Below are positions 5,416 through 46,420 of a stretch of DNA of 64,000 bases, piece by piece; position 1 is the stretch's first letter, and each line of letters begins with the position of its first letter. The translations under genes and the position numbers were made by a program. Source of the stretch: Candidatus Oxydemutatoraceae bacterium (GTDB taxonomy: Bacteria; Pseudomonadota; Gammaproteobacteria; Poriferisulfidales; Oxydemutatoraceae); assembly GCA_965218975.1 (NCBI GenBank), contig OZ244717.1, positions 234,205-298,204 on the forward strand. Direction: 5' to 3'. The notes beneath the pieces are model-generated. The model ran no database searches and was not told the DNA's origin. It saw only the letters and a list, made by a program, of their open reading frames with translations.

Positions 5416-6978
5416 ATGACGGTAAAGCGAACGAAGAGCAGTAAAACTGTTGAGGAAGAAACACAACCTGATTGGGAAAAGTCACCCGGGCGGGTGAGCC
5501 CAAGAGAGCGGCAACCGTTTATTACAGGCGTTGATTCTTTCGCCTTTGAAGCCCCCGTTCAAAGAGCAGGCGGTTCAACCAAGACGATGGGGCGAAAAAC
5601 GCAGCCCGCAGGAAGAATCGGAGGTTCGGAGAATATGCGCATCGCAGACGGTCGTCGTGCTGTTGATAACAGGGCTGTCAAGCGACACTCTGAACGGACC
5701 GACTCATGGCGGGCATCAATCAATCGTTTGAAGTCGGAAGCGGGCCTGCCAGATCAGGCGGCTTGTCGCGCCTCAAATGAGTTAAAGAGTCGGTCAAGCG
5801 GAAGAATTTCGGCGCTATGGTTATTATTGCTGATAGCGATCGTCGGCATCGGGCCTTGGCAATCGGGTATTTGCGATTCATTGTCCGAACCCGGTCAATC
5901 AGTCAAACAAGCGCAATGGCTGCTGAAAGAACTTGGCTACGACGTTGTGCCGGACGGTATCTTAGGCCCCCGGACGAAAGCCGTCATCCGCAATTACGAA
6001 CGCGAAAACAATATGGTTGAGACCGGGCAAGTCACTGTCGAATTAATTGCATCGCTGCAAGCAAAGCCTAAACAAAAAGGCAAAGTATTCCGGGATTGCG
6101 CGGAATGCCCGGAAATGATCGTGATTCCGGCCGGCTCATACCGGATGGGTTCGCCTGCGCATGAGGTGGGGCGCTATAGTGATGAAGGCCCGGTCCATCG
6201 CGTGACGATCGCAAAGCCGTTTGCAGTAGGACGTTATGAAGTCATGCGCGCCGAATTCGCCCATTTTGCGGATGAGGTGGGATTTTTGCAGGAGGACGAA
6301 AATTGCGATTGGTTGAATCCGCTGGAGCCGGAGTTCCGTCAAGGCGAGCGCGATCCTGTGGTATGCGTGATGGGATTTTGGCCGGAGGACGAAAATTGCG
6401 ATTGGTTGAATCCGCTGGAGCCGGAGTTCCGTCAAGGCGAGCGCGATCCTGTGGTATGCGTGGATTGGAACGACGCGCAGGCATATGCAGAGTGGCTGTC
6501 AAGGAAGACCGGAAAGGCGTACCGGCTGTTGAGTGAATCGGAATGGGAGTATGCGGCACGCGGAGGGACGAGCACGGCACGATACTGGGGGGAGCACGAG
6601 GATGAGCAGTGCCGGTATGCGAACGGGATAGATGCGGCTTATAAGAAACATAACCCTAGTTTGAAGTATCCAGTAGCTCCATGTAACGACGGCCATGTGT
6701 ATACATCTCCGGCGGGTTCGTTCTTACCGAACGAGTACGGTTTGTACGACATGCTCGGGAATGTCAATGAGTGGGTAGAAGACTGCTGGAATGATGATTA
6801 TGCCGCAGCGCCGTCCGATGGCAGTGCATGGTTGCAGGGTGATTGTTCCGCTCGTATGTTCCGCGGCGGGTCGTGGGGCGACATTCCGAGGTATCTGCGT
6901 TCTGCGATCCGCTACGCGTACACCACCGGAGACCGGGACGACTATATCGGTTTTCGAGTCGCTAGGACATTGGATTGA
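5416..6978 (+). CDS. Membrane-anchored protein with a peptidoglycan-binding domain and a formylglycine-generating-enzyme (FGE/SUMF1) domain. The N-terminal ~120 aa are disordered.
   Basis: RBS AAAGGAGGcgcgaaATG. Transmembrane segment ISALWLLLLIAIVGIGPW. PG_binding_1-like segment LLKELGYDVVPDGILGPRTKAVIRNYERENNMVETGQVT. FGE-domain blocks: GSYRMGS, VHRVTIAKPFAVGRYEVMRAEF, DAQAYAEWLSRKTGKAYRLLSESEWEYAARGG, YGLYDMLGNVNEWVEDCW, RGGSW, GFRVAR. Confidence 0.75.
   Translation: MTVKRTKSSKTVEEETQPDWEKSPGRVSPRERQPFITGVDSFAFEAPVQRAGGSTKTMGRKTQPAGRIGGSENMRIADGRRAVDNRAVKRHSERTDSWRASINRLKSEAGLPDQAACRASNELKSRSSGRISALWLLLLIAIVGIGPWQSGICDSLSEPGQSVKQAQWLLKELGYDVVPDGILGPRTKAVIRNYERENNMVETGQVTVELIASLQAKPKQKGKVFRDCAECPEMIVIPAGSYRMGSPAHEVGRYSDEGPVHRVTIAKPFAVGRYEVMRAEFAHFADEVGFLQEDENCDWLNPLEPEFRQGERDPVVCVMGFWPEDENCDWLNPLEPEFRQGERDPVVCVDWNDAQAYAEWLSRKTGKAYRLLSESEWEYAARGGTSTARYWGEHEDEQCRYANGIDAAYKKHNPSLKYPVAPCNDGHVYTSPAGSFLPNEYGLYDMLGNVNEWVEDCWNDDYAAAPSDGSAWLQGDCSARMFRGGSWGDIPRYLRSAIRYAYTTGDRDDYIGFRVARTLD
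6291..6462 (+). repeat. Perfect in-frame tandem duplication inside the FGE-domain CDS. Two identical 79-bp segments at 6291-6369 and 6384-6462 give a 93-bp (31-aa) period.
   Basis: GGAGGACGAAAATTGCGATTGGTTGAATCCGCTGGAGCCGGAGTTCCGTCAAGGCGAGCGCGATCCTGTGGTATGCGTG appears twice. The protein reads EDENCDWLNPLEPEFRQGERDPVVCV-MGFWP-EDENCDWLNPLEPEFRQGERDPVVCV. Confidence 0.9.
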
Positions 6979-7244
6979 ATCTTGAAGCTTGGTATCTTGC
7001 GATGGGTGACGGAGCCTTGCCCCGGCTGATTTCTCTGCAGCTGAGGATAGTTCGTTGAGGCAGGCTTCGTGTAGATGCGGGCATGCCTTGGCGCTGAGTA
7101 TTTTCATCTTGAGCGAGTAGTCGCATAACGCCGGATACATACGGGACTCACGGCTTAATCTAAATCGGTTTGCCGTTTCGGGGGAAACTACGGACCGGAT
7201 GTCACCGGGCGCATTCTCGGCAGCCCTAAGCTCTTCGAACCGAT

Positions 7245-7990
7245 GAAACCGTTTTGTGTTTGTTGGCGGATTGTGCCGGATTGTCGGCAAAGTGCCTGTC
7301 ATCCATGCCGCGACTAGGTTCTGTCAACAAGCCCCAGCCCCGACGTCCATGTCGGGTCGTTCGCCGCTGAAAAGCAATTGCTTTTCCGGGCGCGTCTCAC
7401 CCTGACGAGACTGGGTTCTGTCAACAAGCCCCAGCCTCGACGTCCTTGTCGGGTCGTTCACCGCTGAAAACCAATTGGTTTTCCGGGCGCGTCTCATCCA
7501 TGCCGCGACTGGGTTCTGTCAACAAGCCCCAGCCCAGACGTCCATGTCGGGTCGTTCGCCGCTGAAAAGCAATTGCTTTTCCGGGCGCGTCTCACCCTGA
7601 CGAGACTGGGTTCTGTCAACAAGCCCCAGCCTCGACGTCCTTGTCGGGTCGTTCACCGCTGAAAACCAATTGGTTTTCCGGGCGCGTCTCATCCATGCCG
7701 CGACTGGGTTCTGTCAACAAGCCCCAGCCCAGACGTCCATGTCGGGTCGTTCGCCGCTGAAAAGCAATTGCTTTTCCGGGCGCGTCTCACCCTGACGAGA
7801 CTGGGTTCTGTCAACAAGCCCCAGCCCCGACGTCCTTGTCGGGTCGTTCACCGCTGAAAACCAATTGGTTTTCCGGGCGCGTCTCACCCATAACGAGACT
7901 TGGTTCTGTCAATGAGCGCCAGCCTCGACGTCCTTATCAGGCCGTTCGCCGCTGAAAACCGATCGGTTTTCCGGGCGCGTTTCATCCCTG
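7245..7990 (+). repeat. Tandem array of palindromic REP-like units: three full 195-bp periods plus a partial one. Each period is two diverged ~97-bp half-units. The array is preceded by the conserved tail GAAACCGTTTTGTGTTTGTTGGCGGATTGTGCCGGATTGTCGGCAAAGTGCCTGTC.
   Basis: ATCCATGCCG recurs at 7301, 7496 and 7691, a 195-bp period with near-perfect identity between periods. Half-units carry the hairpins GAAAAGCAATTGCTTTTC / GAAAACCAATTGGTTTTC and CCCGACGTCC.TGTCGGG, then CCGGGCGCGTCTCA. This is the same family as 2265-2625, in the opposite orientation. Confidence 0.85.
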
Positions 7991-8250
7991 CCCGAGTGTC
8001 CGCACGATTGCGTGCCTGATCGCGGATGCGCCGAATAAAATGCGCTGTATTCCGCAGCGGCTGAATGCCAAAGGACAAACAAAACGACTGTTCAAGCACC
8101 GTTGCAGGGTACGCAAGCCGAAACACTTCAAAGCATAGTATCCGGGGCATTGCATCGCCCTGGATACGATTGTGCGTTATCAGCACGGCCGCATTCCTGC
8201 GCCTGGCAGAATTTCGGCAACAGTAAAGTCTTTGAGCTAATGAAACCATT
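7990..8250 (+). pseudogene. IS481-family transposase fragment. It covers the region homologous to ...KDFKAQYPEHCIALDTIVRYQHG...AAFLRL, has an in-frame stop and frameshifts, and ends at the junction ...TCTTTGAGCTAATGAAACCATT, where the IS1595 element is inserted.
   Basis: Translation K-H-F-K-A-stop-Y-P-G-H-C-I-A-L-D-T-I-V-R-Y-Q-H-G matches the 45266-45937 transposase. The tail matches 41420-41450. Confidence 0.6.
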
Positions 8251-8335
8251 CGTGATTGTATAGTTGACACAAGTACGAATACATGGTACCAATACTGCAC
8301 TAAAATAGTCAATGGGATAGGCCGCTTGACTACAA

Positions 8336-8695
8336 ATGCAGCACTTACTTCGCGAAATTATTATATCCGCTACTGGTTTAAGTTTTGTCTGCGGTGTTGT
8401 GTTGGGGGTGTTAGTCATGTGGCTCCCTAAATTCATTAAACGTAGACTTTTGCGTAAGAAGGTAGAAGCTGCATACTCAATGCTTAGGATGGTATGTGAG
8501 CCTAAAACTTTGAACCCTGCTCAACTTGGCAACAGAGAATACATGATTTCTGAATCCAGGGATCTTGTTAATGCAATTAGTCTTAAAAGCGCAGGTTTTC
8601 GTCCACCTCAAAAATGTGATCGTAGCGAAAAGTCTTTGAATGAATGGTTTACTTTTCTCCAAGATGTTCGAATTGAATTAGCATCTTGGTTTTGA
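8336..8695 (+). CDS. Hypothetical small membrane protein; passenger ORF 1 of the IS1595-family element.
   Basis: 119-aa ORF with one transmembrane segment (IIISATGLSFVCGVVLGVLVMWL). No family is recognisable and there is no strong RBS. Confidence 0.35.
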   Translation: MQHLLREIIISATGLSFVCGVVLGVLVMWLPKFIKRRLLRKKVEAAYSMLRMVCEPKTLNPAQLGNREYMISESRDLVNAISLKSAGFRPPQKCDRSEKSLNEWFTFLQDVRIELASWF

Positions 8696-8773
8696 TTTAT
8701 AAGGATGACTTGTTTTCCCTAATAGGATATTTAGGTACTCAGTTAATAGAAGTAAACATGAACTACAATTAAG

Positions 8774-9004
8774 ATGCATACGGGTTTGAGTGTACCAAAG
8801 GCTGATAACCAGACAATTCTAAATTGGAAGTATGATATTGAAAATGCTTCTGTGCTATATGGAACACGTATGGGTGATTTGAAAATCCGGTTAATCACTA
8901 CAAGAATGGTAACAGAGGATAGACAGGACTGGCTAACCAAGAATGACTTGTGGGATGTATTAGATTCATACAGGGGTAATCATGTGGGGGATGGGGGTAA
9001 GTAA
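8774..9004 (+). CDS. Hypothetical protein; passenger ORF 2.
   Basis: 76-aa ORF, weak RBS, no recognisable domain. Confidence 0.25.
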   Translation: MHTGLSVPKADNQTILNWKYDIENASVLYGTRMGDLKIRLITTRMVTEDRQDWLTKNDLWDVLDSYRGNHVGDGGK

Positions 9005-9008
9005 AAAA

Positions 9009-9575
9009 ATGAGAGTTATTTTGCTGGCCATGGTCATGATGATAGTGATCTTTGTTCTCTCTGCGTGTTACATCACACCTTACATCACACCGGACTGGCC
9101 CCGGTTGAAGGAATTTTCTGAACATCAGGTAAGGTGGAAATCATACGAGACCACGCGCTACCGGATGCGACTTGAGCGAAACTGTTTTTGCGGTGAAGAT
9201 TATCTACGGCCACTCATTGTTGAAGTTCAGGTGGGGAAGACGATGGAGTTGCCTGTATACGGCAGTAAAGAATTTTTACAGCCTCGTACAACTGTAGTCC
9301 GAATCGAAGATGTAGAGTCGGCCGTATACGAGGATGATGGAAAGCCAGTCCCTTTGGACGAGCTCCAAAGGATTGCATCAATCGATTCCCTGTTCCATAG
9401 GATATACATTGCAAGTTTACGGAATCCAAGCCTTACTCAGCGCATCATGGATGACCTGGTACAGGTTGATTACAATGCCGAGTACGGCTACCCAGAGTTT
9501 GTGGTATTTGATTCAGATGCGATGACTGATGCTTACATTAGCTACGATGTTGAACTTTTGGATATAATCCGTTGA
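9009..9575 (+). CDS. Hypothetical lipoprotein; passenger ORF 3.
   Basis: MRVILLAMVMMIVIFVLSAC has the LSAC lipobox. An SD-like GGGGGTAAG lies 8-10 nt upstream. The ORF is 188 aa with no recognisable family. Confidence 0.5.
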   Translation: MRVILLAMVMMIVIFVLSACYITPYITPDWPRLKEFSEHQVRWKSYETTRYRMRLERNCFCGEDYLRPLIVEVQVGKTMELPVYGSKEFLQPRTTVVRIEDVESAVYEDDGKPVPLDELQRIASIDSLFHRIYIASLRNPSLTQRIMDDLVQVDYNAEYGYPEFVVFDSDAMTDAYISYDVELLDIIR

Positions 9576-9702
9576 ATAAGTATGGCTATAGGTAAATACT
9601 TGAGCCTCGAAGAAGCTCGCAAAAAGAATTTGCTGGATCGTTTTGCCAAGGAACATCCATCCGTAGCGGACGGGCGTTTCTGGCCTTTGCTTAATTCTAT
9701 AA

Positions 9703-10560
9703 TTAAAGGGAAGCAATCAAGTCAGGAAACATCTGTTCAGGCTTGTCCCGATAGTTGTAGCGAAACTCAAACTCCTTCAGATACTTCCGAAGATGCTTCT
9801 TAGACACATGGATATGTGTACCACGAATGCTCAACTTAAGGCGTGCCCAAAAACCTTCAATGCTATTGACATGAGAGCCACCGCTTACCCATTTGCCAGC
9901 ACCATGATTGACCCTCTTATGCTCAAACCCTTCTTTGTCCAGCCCGGAGTAAGAACGAAGCTCATCCGTATGGACTGTGCTTCCCTGCTCAACATTTTCC
10001 TTAATGATCGACTGCAAAGTGCGCTTTTTGACGTTCGGAACAATTTTGGTCATTACATCCCCATCCCTGTCCAACATGCCAAAGGCTATAGCCTTGTTCG
10101 GAGCACCGCGACCGCGCTTTCCGCCAGAAGTCTTACCGCCAATATAGGTTTCGTCAGCTTCAACATGCCCGTCAAGAGGGTTTTCACCGTCCGTATCAGA
10201 CATGTGCTCACGTATCTTGTGAGCCATTCTCAAAGCAGTTGGATAGGCAACTCCAAGCTGGCGTTGCAGTTCCAAGGCGGGCACTCCGTGTCTTGTGGTG
10301 GTGAACAAGTAAATAGCATAGAACCACTTCTGCAAGGGGGTATGGGAGTTTTCAAAGATCGTTCCTACCATCGGATGAATTTGATGTCCGCACCAAGCAC
10401 ACCCATAAGCAGTGTCACGTTTGACTCTGTGAAACTTCCCGTGCTTCCCGCACTTGGGGCAGTCCATAGTCTCCCCATGCTGCTTGTGCATCAGGAACTC
10501 AAGACAGGCTTCATCATCCGGGAACTGTTTCATAAACTCTTGAATTGTTGTGGGTTTCAT
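9703..10560 (-). CDS. IS1595-family DDE transposase with an N-terminal zinc ribbon.
   Basis: CPKCGKHGKFHRVKRDTAYGCAWCGHQ zinc ribbon. Blocks DGHVEADETYIGG, VHTDELRSYSGL, HKRVNH, NSIEGFWARLK and FRYNYR are typical of the ISXO2/IS1595 group. RBS AGGAGatacaccATG. Confidence 0.85.
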   Translation of the reverse strand: MKPTTIQEFMKQFPDDEACLEFLMHKQHGETMDCPKCGKHGKFHRVKRDTAYGCAWCGHQIHPMVGTIFENSHTPLQKWFYAIYLFTTTRHGVPALELQRQLGVAYPTALRMAHKIREHMSDTDGENPLDGHVEADETYIGGKTSGGKRGRGAPNKAIAFGMLDRDGDVMTKIVPNVKKRTLQSIIKENVEQGSTVHTDELRSYSGLDKEGFEHKRVNHGAGKWVSGGSHVNSIEGFWARLKLSIRGTHIHVSKKHLRKYLKEFEFRYNYRDKPEQMFPDLIASL

Positions 10561-10626
10561 GGTGTATCTCCTATCGTTGAAGAAATATTACCATGAATAC
10601 TTACTTGTGTCAACTATATAATCACG

Positions 10627-10830
10627 AAACCATTTTGTGTTTGCTGCCGGATTGTCGGCGGATTGTGCCGGATTGTCGGCAAAGTGCCTGTCACCCATGA
10701 CGAGACTTGGTTCTGTCAATAAACCCCAGCCTCGACGTCCTTGTCAGGTCGTTCGCCGCTGAAAAGCAATTGCTTTTCCGGGCGCGGCTCACCCTGCAAG
10801 AATCCCATTTAAGGTGGCATCGTACAAAGT
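10627..10830 (+). repeat. One REP-like palindromic unit followed directly by the IS481-family 3' inverted repeat (AATCCCATTTAAGGTGGCATCGTACA). This is the distal part of the IS481 remnant split by the IS1595 insertion.
   Basis: The sequence continues the 8243-8250 junction. It carries the tail TTGTGTTTGCTGCCGGATTGTCGGCGGATTGTGCCGGATTGTCGGCAAAGTGCCTGTC, then a unit with the GAAAAGCAATTGCTTTTC hairpin, then the inverted repeat. Confidence 0.75.
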
Positions 10831-11031
10831 GTAGAGTTTCTCAATCAGTCATTGTACAATGCAAGGTTTATATTCGTGGTCGTACCACGAATAGAACATA
10901 AAGCACAAGTCCCTATGTTATTATTTCGTTCGTAATGAAGATTGCTGTTTTAGCATATAAATTATTGCTTATACATAACTTCGGCATTACATGATGCCTC
11001 TTTATAAGTACACTGATGCCCGTTTTTTAGG

Positions 11032-13968
11032 ATGACGCCTCCATTAAAGTCCTCCCGTGCTTTTAGCGAGTCTGCAAACGAGGGTAAATCGCTGCCCGAG
11101 TTTGAGAATCACGCACGGCAGGTAACTAAATACACGACCTGTTATATGTGTGCGTGTCGTTGCGGAATTAAAGTAACGATTGAAAATAATAAGGTGCGCT
11201 TTATACAAGGCAATCGCAGACACCCCGTTAATCAAGGCGTTTTATGTGCTAAAGGCAATGCCGGGATTATGAAGCAGGAGTCACCGGCGAAACTGCGCAC
11301 ACCGCTGCGCCGCAAGCCCGGCAGTGAACGCGGCACAAGCGAGTTTGAACCGATTTCTTGGGATGAGGCATTAGATTTACTCACTAAACGTTTACAGAAA
11401 ATCCGCGAAACCGATCCTAAAAAACTGGCATTTTTTACCGGACGCGATCAAATGCAAGCCTATACCGGACTGTGGGCACAGCAATTCGGTACGATTAACT
11501 GGGCGACACACGGCGGTTTTTGTTCGGTCAACATGGCCGCCGCAGGTCTATATACCATGGGGTATTCGTTTTGGGAGTTTGGTGACCCAGACTGGGATAG
11601 AACCAAATACTTTATGTTGTGGGGGGTGTCCGAAGATCATTCGTCCAACCCAATAAAAATTGGGTTGGAAAAACTCAAACGCTCGGGTGCAAAGTTTGTC
11701 GCAATTAATCCGGTACGTACCGGATATCAAGCGATTGCCGACGAATGGATTCCGATTAAACCCGGTAGCGATGCAATGCTTGCGTTATCTATGGTGCATG
11801 TCCTGCTAAAACATGAGTTGTTTGACTGGGAATTTTTGATTCGCTATACCAACGCGCCGAATCTGGTCTATTGTACTCCCGGAGAGAAAACCGACGGATT
11901 GTTTTATCGCAATGACAACGGTGAGGTGTTGGTTCATGACCAAGGCTCGGGGGAATTTCGTAGCGCGATGCAAAGCGGTATTCAGCCCGCTTTGCTTGGG
12001 GAATTTCAGACAGTTGAAGGAGATACTGTCAAGACCGCATTTACATTGCTTGCCGAGCGATATTTAGACCAACAGTATGCACCGGAAAATGCGGCGCGCG
12101 TGTGCGGGGTTGCGGCGGAAGACATTACGCGCTTGGCTTTGGAGATGGCGCATGTCGCATTCAAGGAGACAATTGAGATTAATTGTCAGTGGACGGACTG
12201 GACCGGTCGCCGCCACGACAAGTTTATCGGACGACCGGTATCAATGCATGCGATGCGTGGTATTTCAGCGCATTCCAACGGATTTCAGACATGCCGAGCG
12301 TTGCATTTTTTACAGATTTTACTAGGTACGATTGATTGCCCTGGCGGATACCGTGCCAAAGCACCCTATCCGAAGCACATTCCGCCGCCCATTAAGCCTG
12401 CCGTCAATACCGTCGCGCAGACACCGCTAAACTCGCCGCCATTGGGTTTCCCTACCTGCCCCGAGGATTTGGTTGTGGATGATGACGGTCGTCCCCGGCG
12501 AATTGACAAAGCCTATTCTTGGGAGGCGCCGCTGGCGATTCATGGGTTATTGCATATGGTAATTACCAACGCGGTCAATGGTGACCCATATCCGATTGAC
12601 ACCTTGATTTTGTTTATGGCAAACATGGCGTGGAACTCTTCCATGAACACAATGCAAGTGCGTGAAATGCTATCCGCCAAAGACGAACATGGCAACTATA
12701 AATTGCCATTTCTAGTAGTGGTTGATGCATTTTATTCCGAGACGGTTGCGTATGCCGATTTAGTGTTACCGGATACCACGTACCTCGAACGCTTTGACAC
12801 TATCTCTATTTTAGACCGTCCGATTGCCGAGCCTGATGCGGTCTGCGACGCAATCCGTGCTCCGGTGTTGGATGTCGACCGCGATGTTTGCGCATGGCAG
12901 GAAGTAATGACTGAGTTGGCGAGCCGTTTGCAATTTCCCGCTTTCACTAACGAGGATGGTAGTCGCAAATATAAAGATTATAAAGATTTCATTGTTCGCT
13001 TTGAAAAAGCGCCGGGGCTTGGTTTCCTTGCCGGCTGGCGGGGGGAAAACGGCGAATCGCATATCCGCGGTGCGCCCAACCCTAAGCAATGGGAGCGTTA
13101 CATTGAAAACGAATGCTTCTTTCACTTTCCTTTGCCGGAAAATCAAAGATTTTATCGTTTCGCCAATAAAGATTACCTTGCCTTTGCCAAGGAAGCAGGA
13201 TTCAATACTTGTGATGATCCGATCTTACTGTCGCTGTACTCGGAAGAGTTGCAGAAGTTCAGATTAGCGGCAGCGGGTTTGACCGACGGTCCTCAACCGA
13301 ATAACGATCAAGATCGCAAACGTATTCAAACTTTTTTTGACCCCTTGCCTTTTTATTATCAGCCCCTGGAACAAGTGCGCACAAATTTAGGGGAGTTTCC
13401 TTTTTTTGCACTGACTCAACGTCCGATGATGATGTATCACTCATGGGATTCACAAAATGCTTGGTTGCGGCAGATTCTGGCGCAAAACATGTTGTTCATG
13501 AATCGTGGGCGAGCACAAGCGCTTGGTATTGAAGATCTGTCGTGGGTTTGGATTGAATCGCGACAGGCGCGAGTATGTGCGCAAGTCAAGTTAATGGAAG
13601 GAGTGCAACGCGATACGGTATGGACTTGGAATGCTATTGGCAAACAACGCGGTGCTTGGGGGTTGGAACCGGATGCCAACGAATCAAACAGCGGCTTTTT
13701 GCTAAATCATCTGATCTCAGAATTACTGCCGCAAACTGACGGTGACCGTCCGATTACGAACTCCGACCCAATTACCGGACAAGCGGCATGGTACGATTTG
13801 CGCGTTAAAATTTACCCTGCCGATAAACCCGGCACAGCGCCGGTATTTAGTAGCATACCTCCGCTAGCAGGACAAGCGGCACAAGAATCAACCTTGCGTT
13901 ACCAAACGCATCCTGCGGTTAATTTGCGCCGCTCATTTCGGGACATTTTAAGTCGCGGGTGGAAATAA
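11032..13968 (+). CDS. soeA: Molybdopterin (bis-MGD) oxidoreductase catalytic subunit without a Tat signal: sulfite dehydrogenase SoeA-type.
   Basis: N-terminal 4Fe-4S motif CYMCACRCGIKV...CAKG. The 978-aa size fits. There is no RRxFL Tat motif at the N-terminus. It is followed by a 4x[4Fe-4S] subunit and an NrfD/DmsC-type anchor, and sits in a genome with reverse dsr. This is the architecture of cytoplasmic SoeABC from purple sulfur bacteria (established knowledge). Confidence 0.7.
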   Translation: MTPPLKSSRAFSESANEGKSLPEFENHARQVTKYTTCYMCACRCGIKVTIENNKVRFIQGNRRHPVNQGVLCAKGNAGIMKQESPAKLRTPLRRKPGSERGTSEFEPISWDEALDLLTKRLQKIRETDPKKLAFFTGRDQMQAYTGLWAQQFGTINWATHGGFCSVNMAAAGLYTMGYSFWEFGDPDWDRTKYFMLWGVSEDHSSNPIKIGLEKLKRSGAKFVAINPVRTGYQAIADEWIPIKPGSDAMLALSMVHVLLKHELFDWEFLIRYTNAPNLVYCTPGEKTDGLFYRNDNGEVLVHDQGSGEFRSAMQSGIQPALLGEFQTVEGDTVKTAFTLLAERYLDQQYAPENAARVCGVAAEDITRLALEMAHVAFKETIEINCQWTDWTGRRHDKFIGRPVSMHAMRGISAHSNGFQTCRALHFLQILLGTIDCPGGYRAKAPYPKHIPPPIKPAVNTVAQTPLNSPPLGFPTCPEDLVVDDDGRPRRIDKAYSWEAPLAIHGLLHMVITNAVNGDPYPIDTLILFMANMAWNSSMNTMQVREMLSAKDEHGNYKLPFLVVVDAFYSETVAYADLVLPDTTYLERFDTISILDRPIAEPDAVCDAIRAPVLDVDRDVCAWQEVMTELASRLQFPAFTNEDGSRKYKDYKDFIVRFEKAPGLGFLAGWRGENGESHIRGAPNPKQWERYIENECFFHFPLPENQRFYRFANKDYLAFAKEAGFNTCDDPILLSLYSEELQKFRLAAAGLTDGPQPNNDQDRKRIQTFFDPLPFYYQPLEQVRTNLGEFPFFALTQRPMMMYHSWDSQNAWLRQILAQNMLFMNRGRAQALGIEDLSWVWIESRQARVCAQVKLMEGVQRDTVWTWNAIGKQRGAWGLEPDANESNSGFLLNHLISELLPQTDGDRPITNSDPITGQAAWYDLRVKIYPADKPGTAPVFSSIPPLAGQAAQESTLRYQTHPAVNLRRSFRDILSRGWK

Positions 13969-15945: not shown

Positions 15946-16262
15946 ATGAATACTTTTGTATATCTTCTTAATGCGGCTTCCAATCCATGTGTCCGCTCAA
16001 GGCGTGGTTTCGTCTGTGGAATGCGATTCTTACCCCTTGAGCGTTTCAACCGTACTCTGCAAAAAGACTTTGCGGACCACAATGAGGAACTATTGTTTAC
16101 GAATTCGGATAAATTCAACGAGCGTTTATGGTCATATTCGGAGTGGTACAATATGCGCCGACTGCATGCCGACAACGGACAGAAAGCACCGATCCGAATG
16201 TTACTGCCGGGCGCTTCCCTCAAAGCTCTTTAAAAATCCCATTTAGGGTGGCATCGTACAGC
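15946..16262 (+). pseudogene. IS481-family transposase C-terminal fragment plus the 3' inverted repeat.
   Basis: ERFNRTLQKDFADHNEELLFTNSDKFNERLWSYSEWYNMRRLHADNGQKAPIRMLLPGASLKAL, then AAAATCCCATTTAGGGTGGCATCGTACAG. Confidence 0.7.
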
Positions 16263-18199: not shown

Positions 18200-18440
18200 A
18201 ACGCGCATATCAAACGTTTGACCGAACCGTGCAGGAAGATTGTATCGATCAAGACCTATTATTCACCAATATCAAAGCATTCAATGACCGGTGATGTGAG
18301 TATTAGAGTTGACCGTAATCTGCACCCGTCCGCATGACGGCAACGGACAGAAAGCGCCGATGATCCGAATGTCGTGCCGGACACTTCCTCCGAAGCGCTG
18401 CAAAAATCCCATTTAGAGTGGCATCGTATAGTATTCATGT
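18200..18440. mobile_element. Scrambled IS481-family fragments: a transposase C-terminal piece (...DCIDQDLLFTNIKAFNDR) and a 3' inverted repeat (AAAATCCCATTTAGAGTGGCATCGTATAG).
   Basis: Sequence identity to the other IS481-family ends in this window. Confidence 0.55.
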
Positions 18441-41204: not shown

Positions 41205-41702
41205 CGAGATCAGATATGCAGTATCAACACATTGGCCACCGCATCACCTGTCTGCGTGGAACGCACAGGCAGATATGATGCCCTATTATTTTGGAAGAGT
41301 TGTAGCTCCCGAACGCATTCAAGGTCGGTCGCAGTACTTTGTACCGCTGGCGGCGGCGGACCTGGCCGCAATTGATTCAGCGTGAAATCAAACGTCTGCG
41401 CCAAGATCATTTGAATCTCGGCAGCAGTAAAATCTTTGAGCTAATGAAACCGTTTTGTGTTTGGTGGCGATGCTCGGCACAGTGTTTGTCATCCATGACG
41501 AGACTTGGTTCTGTCAACAAGCCCCAGCCCCGACGTCCTTGTCGGGTCGTTCGCCGCTGAAAACCGATCGGTTTTCCGGGCGCGTCTCACCCTGCACCGC
41601 CCTCATGCCGGCAACGGACAGAAAGCACCGATCCGAATGTTACTGCCGAACGCTTCCCTCAAAGCACTTCAAAAATCCCATTTAGGATGGCATCGTACAT
41701 GA
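41205..41702 (+). mobile_element. MITE-like deletion derivative of the IS481-family element: left-end region and transposase N-terminal HTH, one REP-like unit, the last ~35 codons of the transposase, and the 3' inverted repeat.
   Basis: ...FKVGRSTLYRWRRRTWPQLIQREIKRLRQDHLNLGSSKIFELMKPF, then GAAACCGTTTTGTGTTTGGTGGCG..., a palindromic unit, then HRPHAGNGQKAPIRMLLPNASLKALQKSHLGWHRT, then AAAAATCCCATTTAGGATGGCATCGTACAT. Confidence 0.7.
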
Positions 41703-44404: not shown

Positions 44405-46420
44405 TCAGTTTCCTCCGGGGCGCGACTTGCTCGGAAGCGGGAACGGAGCTTCGTCCCATTTCAAACCTACGCTACGGTAGGTCCTGTTGACGTCCGCACT
44501 CGCGCCGGATCCGCCACCCTGTCCCGCTTGATAGACCCGGTCGAGATTCAGTAGAACGCCGCCGCTTCGCTCCAGCCCGTACACCGTGGCGCGCTTGCTC
44601 TGCGGCTGTGCGATACGCGCCAGTACCAGCTCGCGCAGGATGCGATTGGCCGCCATACGGCGCGCACCCAACACCTAGTTCCATCCGAGGTGCGAATAAA
44701 TCTGCGCGAACGCCTCGTGCACCCCAAGCGTCAGACGCGTTTCCTCACGGCATTTAGCCAGATCCGCCGATGCCTCTTGCACGGCGCTTTGCCGCGGTCA
44801 TGCAAGGCGCTGAGCCCAGTGCGGCGATAACGCTGGCGCCAGCGGTACAAAGTACTGCGACCGACCTTGAATACGTTCGGGAGTTATAACCTCCCAAAAT
44901 AATAGGGCAGTATATTTCTGTTGAAGCTTAGAATGCTCATGAGCCTCCATTATTGAAGTATACGATGCCACCCTAAATGGGATTTTTGAAGCGCTTCGAG
45001 AGAAGCGTTCGACAGTAACATTCGGGGATCGGTGTTTTCTGTCCGTTGCCGACATGAGGGCGGTGCGGGGTGAGACGCGCCCGGAAAACCAATTGGTTTT
45101 CAGCGGTGAACGACCCGACAAGGACGTCGGGGCTGGGGCTTGTTGACAGAACCCAGTCGCGTCATGGACGACAGGCACTTTACCGACAATCCGGCACAAT
45201 CCGCCGACAATCCGGCACAATCCGCCGACAATTCGCACAATCCACCACCAAACTACAAAATGGTTTCATAACCGGTCATTGAATGCTTCCGTATCGGTAA
45301 ATAGCAGGTCTTCTGCATGATCGATACAATCTTCTTGGACGGTGCGGCTGAAGCGCTTGATGTGCGCGTTCATTTTCGGACACTTGGGATAGGTCAGCCA
45401 CTGCTCAATCACGGGCGATTCCCGGATGAGCCGGGCAAACTGTCCTTGAAACTCACTACCGCCGTCCGTCAAGATATATTTTACCGGTGGCGGTAGCACC
45501 GCCAGGGTCAAGCGCAGAAATGCGGCAGCACTGCGGCTGTTACAGCAGTTGGTTGCCACTGCCGTTGCCATGCGGGTATAGACATCAATGGCCGTTAAGA
45601 CGGTGCGGCGCATCCCGTGCTGATAACGCACAATTGTATCTAGGGCGATGCAATGCTCCGGATACTGTGCTTTGAAGTCTTTCGGCTTGTGTGCCCTGCA
45701 ACGGCGCTTAAACGGTCGTTTTGTTTGTCCTTTGGCATTCGTGCGCTGCGGAACACGGCGCATTTTATCCGGCGCATCCGCGGTCAGGCGCGCAATCGTG
45801 CGGACACTCGGGCAGGGTGAGACGCGCCCGGAAAACCGATCGGTTTTCAGCGGCGAACGACCCGACAAGGACGTCGGGGCTAGGGCTTGTTGACAGAACC
45901 AAGTCTCGTCATGGGTGAGACGCGCCCGGAAAACCAATTGGTTTTCAGCGGCGAACGACCCGACAAGGACGTCGGGGCTGGGGCTTGTTGACAGAACCCA
46001 GTCGCGTCATGGACGACAGGCACTTTGCCGACAATCCGGCACAATCCGCCGACAATCCGGCAACAAGCGCAAAACGGTTTCACACTGAATCGGTTGGCTA
46101 GGTCCGTCGGCGCCTCTTGCGCGGCGCTCTGGTGCGGCCATGCAAGGCGCTGAACCCAATGCGGCGATAGCGCTAGCGCCAACAGCACTAAAGTACTGCG
46201 ACCGACCTTAAATGCGTTCGGGAGTTACAACCCTCCTAAAATAATAGGGCAGCATATTTCTGTTGAAGTTTAGAGCGCTCATGAGCCTCCATTCTTGAAG
46301 CTAAATTGGCTCATATAGAAACCTTTGATGCGGTGGCCGATGTGTTGATATTGCATATCGGTCACCTTTTTGAGTTAAGCCGTGAGTCCCATACGTATCT
46401 GGCACTATACAGTGCCAAGC
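44405..46420 (-). mobile_element. Two abutting degenerate IS481-family copies in minus orientation. The first is a full-length but disrupted copy (44960-46420: left end at 46420, transposase remnants, two REP-unit insertions at 45060-45265 and 45820-46080, 3' inverted repeat at 44960-44990). The second is a 5'-truncated copy (44405-44955) containing the transposase N-terminal HTH region.
   Basis: 3' end: ...HRPHVGNGQKTPIPECYCRTLLSKRFKNPI, then GGTGGCATCGTATAC. Left end: GGCACTGTATAGTGCCAGATACGTATGGGACTCACGG (reverse complement of 46384-46420). HTH-like translation FKVGRSTLYRWRQRY and ARRMAANRILRELVLARIAQP in 44405-44900. Confidence 0.65.
45266..45937 (-). pseudogene. IS481-family transposase integrase-core (rve) remnant, truncated by REP-unit insertions.
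   Basis: LTAIDVYTRMATAVATNCC...ILTDGGSEFQGQFARLI...VQEDCIDHAEDLLFTDTEAFNDRL is the DDE/rve core of IS481-type transposases. The N-terminus reads through repeat sequence. Confidence 0.65.

Follow-up and report, generated by a model that had tools for sequence, protein, structure and literature searches.

A probable cargo-carrying IS1595-family element inserted into a probable IS481-type remnant

The locus: genes, ends and target

The window analysed here is a stretch of 64,000 nucleotides of contig OZ244717.1 from a Candidatus Oxydemutatoraceae bacterium, and our subject is its segment 8251-10626, which is 2376 bp long, lies between two copies of the octamer AAACCATT and encodes a transposase together with four other open reading frames (ORFs). 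The transposase gene (9703-10560, 285 aa) is on the minus strand. On the plus strand, in order, are a 119-aa ORF (8336-8695), a 76-aa ORF (8774-9004), a lipoprotein gene (8982-9575) and a 73-aa gene (9582-9803) that is convergent with the transposase gene and overlaps its last 101 nt. The segment is very probably one autonomous, cargo-carrying element of the IS1595 family, that is, a transporter insertion sequence (tIS), and a clean insertion in an IS481 remnant. An earlier sequence-only reading of this DNA had proposed such an element with three passenger ORFs, two of them small: additional genes are indeed present inside the repeats, but the non-transposase ORFs number four, and the small ORF at 9582-9803 proved, from its linkage and from codon tests, to be a clade-wide accessory gene rather than a passenger.

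The transposase matches Pfam DDE_Tnp_IS1595 (PF12762; 1.4e-44, model positions 2-153 of 153) and Zn_ribbon_IS1595 (PF12760; 2.7e-07, 30.9 bits against a cut-off of 25.4), as well as the NCBIfam model transpos_IS1595 (NF033547; 2.7e-71, 239.9 bits against a cut-off of 75). In an alignment with 38 relatives, the zinc-ribbon cysteines C34, C37, C54 and C57, the catalytic residues D136, D199 and E235, and K242 are invariant, and all of them are kept here; the family assignment of the earlier reading thus stands. The nearest annotated transposases in a plasmid collection are 48-49% identical and are labelled only "IS1595 family transposase". Members of this family generate 8-bp duplications and have one transposase gene with a zinc finger and a DDE domain, the N-terminal zinc ribbon being missing from the IS1016 group only; the subgroups are ISPna2, ISH4, IS1016, IS1595, ISSod11, ISNwi1 and ISNha5 (PMC8101967). 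The present element combines the DDE_Tnp_IS1595 domain and the N-terminal zinc ribbon with an 8-bp duplication and terminal inverted repeats. Its ends (CGYGATTAT...) and its D-D-E-K pattern may resemble those of the ISNwi1 subgroup.

The terminal inverted repeats occupy 8251-8288 on the cargo side (plus strand) and 10589-10626 on the transposase side (minus strand), and the first is identical to the reverse complement of the second at 34 of 38 nt in an end alignment. The region 7800-11100 was read directly. A repeat finder returned one long inverted pair, 8249-8299 and 10578-10628, and a search of the 64 kb for a 25-nt core of this repeat that allowed up to 3 mismatches hit two sites only, both of them element ends (0 matches in 100 shuffles). 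The claim of intact repeats at both ends therefore survives re-alignment, with a pair that is unique in the window. Further copies of the 2376-bp element could be recognised by the sequence CGYGATTRTATAGTTGACACAAGTA.

Perfect 8-bp copies of AAACCATT abut the inverted repeats at 8243-8250 on the left and 10627-10634 on the right. When the empty site was reconstructed by joining the sequence up to 8250 to that from 10635 onward, with one octamer kept, it was unbroken across the junction relative to 2816-2467, 7217-7404 and 41413-41596. In a multiple alignment of the empty site with four paralogues (7199-7320, 41400-41520 and the reverse complements of 2540-2670 and 45990-46110), AAACCGTT occurs once in each sequence; the junction context in the paralogues reads ...TGAAACC(G/A)TTTTGTGTTTG..., again with a single octamer. 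Because the four uninterrupted paralogues have one copy only, the octamer is a true target-site duplication. The sequence-only reading had itself named, as what would overturn it, the possibility that the octamer belongs to the repeat unit; this check goes in its favour, as do the distance between the duplications, which gives the 2376 bp that it reported, and the flanks, which rejoin collinearly with the paralogues once the element is removed, as expected of a clean insertion.

Both flanks come from a repeat family that has five or more copies in the window. To the left, 7990-8250 (plus strand) is a decayed, internally deleted remnant, probably of the IS481 family, recognised by its identity to other copies: the target copy is 92% identical to 45851-45615 (238 nt) and 77% identical to 2816-2467. 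The right part, 10635-10700 (plus strand), is the end of the same remnant by alignment of the rejoined flanks. The reverse complement of the paralogue at 45150-45700 translates to an integrase-core fragment that matches NCBIfam transpos_IS481 (NF033577, 1.4e-20) and Pfam rve (2.3e-05), and an IS3 model more weakly (1.3e-07). Its NF033577 score of 74 bits is below the full-length cut-off of 224, as that of a fragment would be. The interrupted copy itself, which is internally deleted, gave no transposase-family match in the family scan, so that it is the match of the paralogue, together with the 92% identity of the target to that repeat family, that supports the proposed insertion into an IS481-type remnant.

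Conserved core and variable cargo in related elements

Relatives were sampled via the transposase and via the 73-aa gene, and elements without the 73-aa gene escape the latter sampling. A scan of one genome per species, in a collection that lacks the source species, gave 56 loci; the 58 elements that could be delimited consist of 24 (species-scan loci and two metagenome contigs) plus 34 from metagenomes. The best relatives, with 81-86% transposase identity, are in genomes of uncultured Gammaproteobacteria, Candidatus Oxydemutatoraceae and Opitutales. The 58 delimited relatives have lengths of 1.56-3.08 kb, the shortest being 1560 bp, and 8-bp duplications are readable at many of them. Set against published descriptions of the family, the earlier statement that the element is about twice as long as a plain member is correct, but this clade has no plain members. 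In three genomes, whole units including their cargo occur in 3-4 copies that are 99.94-100% identical, at unrelated sites and with their own 8-bp duplications; in this clade, therefore, the cargo moves with the element.

Comparison by blastn with six relatives found homology from position 1 (the transposase-side end) to 1044-1046 and in the last 25 nt, with none between. The edge of homology coincides with position 1045, the start codon of the 73-aa ORF, and the conserved 1045-bp core comprises the transposase-side repeat, the transposase gene and the convergent 73-aa gene. Beyond it, in the cargo slot, one to four ORFs share the strand of the 73-aa gene, the last of them usually abutting or overlapping the start codon of that gene, and an element without cargo was found in 0 of the 58 delimited relatives. 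By blastp, the 76 cargo ORFs group into 64 families. A Pfam domain of any kind is found in about 7 of 55 cargo proteins (DUF4747, ankyrin, M78/IrrE peptidase, DUF6174, a holin-like domain and others), and a few from the relatives match candidate defence-protein models. With 64 unrelated families and so few Pfam domains, no common biochemical function is visible. A simple, crude hydropathy rule, applied to the first 110 residues of proteins of at least 100 aa, assigned a membrane-like N-terminal segment to 57 of 68 cargo proteins versus 13 of 42 long host-window ORFs (Fisher p = 3.6e-8).

Recognisable cargo in three relatives (L069, L084 and L024) includes a membrane-anchored ankyrin-repeat protein, an M78/IrrE-type peptidase beside a four-helix membrane protein, and an RmrA-matching protein; the protein that matches many RmrA defence-candidate models is taken to be the 535-aa protein of L084 with a P-loop-like motif. 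We also considered capture of cargo via a surrogate outer repeat, which is unsupported: there is no internal repeat copy beside the 73-aa gene. The closest relative (L057, 3023-4770), whose transposase is in the same 90%-identity cluster as that of the present element, adjoins cas7-cas4-cas1-cas2, and its 8-nt flanks differ (AAATACTA versus TTAATCTA), which suggests a rearrangement or deletion at the CRISPR-Cas locus after insertion.

The cargo of the present element is no easier to classify. The 119-aa ORF, with one N-terminal transmembrane helix by hydropathy, has weak relatives in L015 and L018, where they occupy the corresponding place. When the three were combined in an iterative profile, no further cargo proteins were recruited, which argues that the cargo proteins do not form one recognisable family. 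The 76-aa ORF is an orphan, its protein cluster having one member. Neither of these two matches anything in Pfam or NCBIfam, and no ORF of the element has a match in PADLOC or PHROGs. The lipoprotein gene, already noticed by the sequence-only reading, is better defined: its product matches Pfam DUF6174 (2.7e-18) and, if translation begins at Met10 (the probable start, 9009), carries a lipoprotein signal with the lipobox LSAC (MRVILLAMVMMIVIFVLSAC).

A word-indexed homologue search with the lipoprotein found only itself, and an exhaustive search found 99 relatives, all of them distant DUF6174 proteins; the protein is a divergent member of that family. Of the three nearest relatives, one is a DUF6174-FGE-sulfatase fusion, one lies inside an FGE-sulfatase-domain gene cluster and the third is on a 693-bp contig without informative context; the window has an FGE-sulfatase gene of its own at 5416-6978. 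A structural model built with 56 relatives (pLDDT 84) resembles the LolA/LprG fold. LolA/LprG-like lipoproteins combine an unclosed beta-barrel under a helical lid with a lipoprotein signal. The likeness to the LolA/LolB/LprG superfamily is one of modelled fold only, with no sequence similarity (3-11% identity), and we have moderate confidence in the prediction of a lipoprotein of the cell envelope that has a ligand-binding fold like that of LolA. Just past the lipobox cysteine, the gene contains a perfect 12-bp tandem duplication (TTACATCACACC x2, 9068-9091), which encodes YITP-YITP and may have arisen recently by slippage.

The 73-aa ORF is present in all 24 of the elements in the first set of delimited relatives. 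It aligns across 23 relatives. The first 26 codons, clear of the overlap with the transposase gene, have mean pairwise differences of 0.28/0.19/0.61 at codon positions 1/2/3, with 2906 synonymous versus 1999 non-synonymous codon differences; other frames over the same codons have about ten times fewer synonymous differences, the mirror frame excepted. These patterns identify the ORF as a protein-coding gene under purifying selection. Among the loci examined, it stands beside every transposase that is at least 54% identical to ours, with one exception, is faint at 48-49% and is absent at 45% or below. Conversely, 78 of 80 metagenome loci retrieved via the 73-aa ORF alone have the transposase adjacent and convergent. 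It is a clade-specific accessory gene, not a passenger. The exception is L052 (5929-8164, in a Rickettsiaceae genome, transposase 57% identical), which has no 73-aa gene; its cargo, judged by eye, resembles a TPR-like protein of 242 aa that has a signal or anchor at its N terminus. A profile search with the 73-aa family reached 1676 cluster representatives, of which none has a Pfam domain and the named ones are called only "hypothetical". The predicted structure has three short helices (pLDDT 63), with no Foldseek match in the PDB and no significant profile match to PDB sequences. Our guess is that it regulates transposition or the promoters in the repeats.

Opposite the transposase gene lies a long antisense frame without stops (9793-10596, plus strand), and 12 of 13 close relatives (the L001-L018, L058 set) keep it open throughout. 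We asked whether it might be coding, perhaps as an extension of the 73-aa ORF, and rejected the idea. The frame is open because TTA, CTA and TCA are rare in the transposase gene (4.1% of Leu and Ser codons versus 24.2% in cargo, six-fold rarer, over 58 transposase genes), but A-ending codons are depleted generally, CGA equally so, and synonymous divergence of the transposase is not reduced (0.619 versus 0.658). We judge the frame to be a by-product of codon usage that general avoidance of A-ending codons does not fully explain, the depletion exceeding it about three-fold.

Both repeats contain promoter-like sequences that face inward. On the transposase side (10585-10613, minus strand), TTGACA in the repeat is followed by a 17-nt spacer, a TG-extended TAATAT, AGGAGA and ATG, and the site scored 10 of 12 consensus matches in a consensus scan. 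In the cargo-side repeat, the -35-like TTGACA at 8264-8269 is followed after 17 nt by a TG-extended -10-like TACCAA at 8287-8292. Across the clade, a TTGAC box is found in both repeats and a TAnnAT-like hexamer 16-18 nt further on, on both sides; the cargo-side spacing is kept although the sequence there is otherwise unrelated between relatives. In four relatives (L002, L003, L016 and L058) the ATG of the cargo comes 6 nt past the -10-like hexamer, which suggests that their cargo transcripts may be leaderless.

Known counterparts and competing explanations

Transporter insertion sequences are built like an IS but also carry passenger genes that have nothing to do with transposition (PMC3129680; bioRxiv 10.1101/2021.05.26.445724). 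They were first found in the IS1595 family (PMC3129680; PMC11891212; bioRxiv 10.1101/2021.05.26.445724) and were described in 2021 as confined to IS1595 and IS66 (bioRxiv 10.1101/2021.05.26.445724). The tIS of the IS1595 family (Siguier, Gagnevin & Chandler 2009), such as ISNha5 (cited in PMC11891212), share with the present element the DDE domain with an N-terminal zinc ribbon, the inverted repeats, the 8-bp duplication and the unrelated genes inside. The DUF6174 lipoprotein gene and two further ORFs lie inside the repeats and the duplication here, and the element is, by its sequence, an unnamed new tIS of the IS1595 family. Such elements are already known, since tIS with passengers were defined from this very family. 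What the present clade may add is the conserved convergent 73-aa gene and a slot that is never empty in our sample.

Other systems resemble it in part. The title of the 2009 paper on the IS1595 family relates the family to IS1 (cited in PMC3129680). The 73-aa gene invites comparison with IS1 (InsA/InsAB'), from which it differs in being separate, on the opposite strand and without a zinc motif. IS1 is a small element with a short regulatory protein besides the transposase and with promoter elements in a terminal repeat; that protein corresponds to the N-terminal portion of the transposase reading frame, is produced when no frameshift occurs, and attaches to the repeats by a zinc finger and a helix-turn-helix. 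IS66-family elements have conserved accessory ORFs of unclear function that are co-oriented with the transposase gene and upstream of it. The likeness of that family to ours is its status as a tIS-containing family (bioRxiv 10.1101/2021.05.26.445724), whereas the transposase families are unrelated. Unit transposons of the Tn3 family likewise have passengers between terminal repeats that move as one unit; they are much larger, with a different transposase, a resolvase and 5-bp duplications, whereas the element here is IS-sized and without a resolution system.

How such an element would work can be outlined as follows. The DDE transposase would recognise both terminal inverted repeats (about 25-38 nt), cut the target with a stagger of 8 bp and insert the whole 2376-bp unit, which would have duplicated AAACCATT in a dead IS481-family remnant. 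Within the unit, the 1045-bp core would be followed by the variable cargo slot, filled here by the 119-aa membrane protein, the 76-aa orphan and the DUF6174 lipoprotein, and by the short distal repeat. Each repeat would contribute a -35 box to a promoter that faces inward. One of these promoters would drive the transposase gene and the other an operon running from the cargo into the 73-aa gene, and transcription of that operon would run antisense into the end of the transposase gene. The 73-aa protein would modulate transposition or expression, and the lipoprotein would be exported to the cell envelope and bind a hydrophobic ligand. Several points weigh against parts of this outline: there is a single copy of the element in the window, the cargo-side -10 hexamer TACCAA matches at 3 of 6 positions, the inward promoters at both repeats are putative and are pattern matches, the low-confidence model of the 73-aa protein has no structural or sequence relative of known function, and the 76-aa ORF may not be a gene.

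As for movement with passengers, this copy is a single clean 2376-bp insertion, and relatives occur as identical multi-copy units that include the cargo. The suggestion of the sequence-only reading that the insertion may be recent and the element possibly still mobile is plausible, given the perfect duplication, the intact gene and the relatives in 3-4 identical copies with cargo. The element could instead be a fixed relic that inserted cleanly once and no longer moves, for example for want of host factors or through silencing; we think this unlikely, at perhaps one chance in a few. The lone copy in the window would fit such a history, as would the record of the exact transposase and cargo proteins from one contig only and the differences between the repeats at 4 of 38 positions. 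However, the duplication has stayed perfect while the surrounding repeat family diverged to 77-92%, the transposase is full-length with all clade-invariant residues, and identical multi-copy sets are found among relatives whose repeats are about as imperfect (20-24 of 24 matches). Far less probable still, and in our view hardly tenable, is that the segment is not one element at all but an IS of about 1.1 kb plus neighbouring DNA with a chance repeat-like end, or two nested elements. The uneven G+C content might be read that way (about 0.35-0.41 at 8300-9000, 0.45-0.48 in the lipoprotein gene and 0.47-0.51 in the core), but the duplication flanks the full 2376 bp, the rejoined flanks match four paralogues, there is no internal repeat copy and all relatives have the same layout.

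The alternative that we take most seriously, while still rating it below even odds, concerns the cargo: the slot may be an obligatory module for a fast-evolving membrane protein that serves the element or the host, for instance in addiction, exclusion or phage defence, with the three ORFs here in that role. It would account for the lack of any cargo-free element among the 58 delimited relatives, down to the shortest at 1560 bp, for the excess of hydrophobic segments over host ORFs (57 of 68 versus 13 of 42), for cargo that without exception has the orientation of the 73-aa gene and touches or overlaps the start codon of that gene, for the -10-like hexamer that is kept at the right spacing despite non-homologous cargo-side sequence, and for the few cargo proteins that match defence-candidate models. 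It is harder to reconcile with the spread of 76 ORFs over 64 unrelated families, about 7 of 55 with a Pfam domain, and with the window's own cargo, which lacks any PADLOC or PHROGs match; moreover, the hydropathy rule is crude and sampling via the 73-aa gene misses elements without that gene. More tentatively still, these elements may constitute an undescribed IS1595 subgroup of three-part design, with a transposase, a small convergent gene and an always-filled slot, transcribed from the distal repeat, for mostly N-terminally membrane-anchored proteins, the latter two serving the element in maintenance, regulation or host protection.

For this genome, the single cargo-carrying element that we favour is a well-defined and plausibly recent insertion event, and the shared design of its clade is in our view the more interesting result. 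The relatives form a natural series, with one 1-kb core, 64 cargo families and an edge exactly at one start codon, that could be used to study how small transposons pick up and exchange genes and to probe the role of a widespread 73-aa protein (at least 1676 sequence clusters, none annotated).

Genome context and neighbouring repeats

Rfam and tRNA scans of the window gave no match. Its host genes include an ankyrin-repeat protein gene at 218-1096 and, at 5416-6978, the FGE-sulfatase-domain protein gene mentioned above, whose product also has a peptidoglycan-binding domain; these genes and the 2.08-Mb chromosome suggest a host-associated, possibly symbiont-like bacterium. If so, a small symbiont-like chromosome with ankyrin-repeat and FGE-sulfatase genes, IS481 wrecks and 97-bp repeats would still be gaining mobile DNA that brings envelope proteins.

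Units of 97/98 bp come after every IS481-type remnant end, following the end itself and a short GGATTGTGCCGGATTGTCGGC motif: there are seven in tandem at 7312-7990, one after the interrupted remnant at 10705-10794, and further units at 2221-2530, 44964-45256 and 45773-46101. Every unit contains a GAAAAGCAATTGCTTTTC hairpin (folding z = -2.2), and the units suggest a MITE- or REP-like array associated with IS481 ends. A separate 57-nt motif with the end ...AAATCCCATTTAGGGTGGCATCGTACA occurs in four copies (10771-10827, 16205-16261, 18375-18431 and 41644-41700) that are 63-89% identical to the reference copy and are all intergenic, ahead of a plus-strand ORF. The motif could serve as a common promoter or as a regulatory box.

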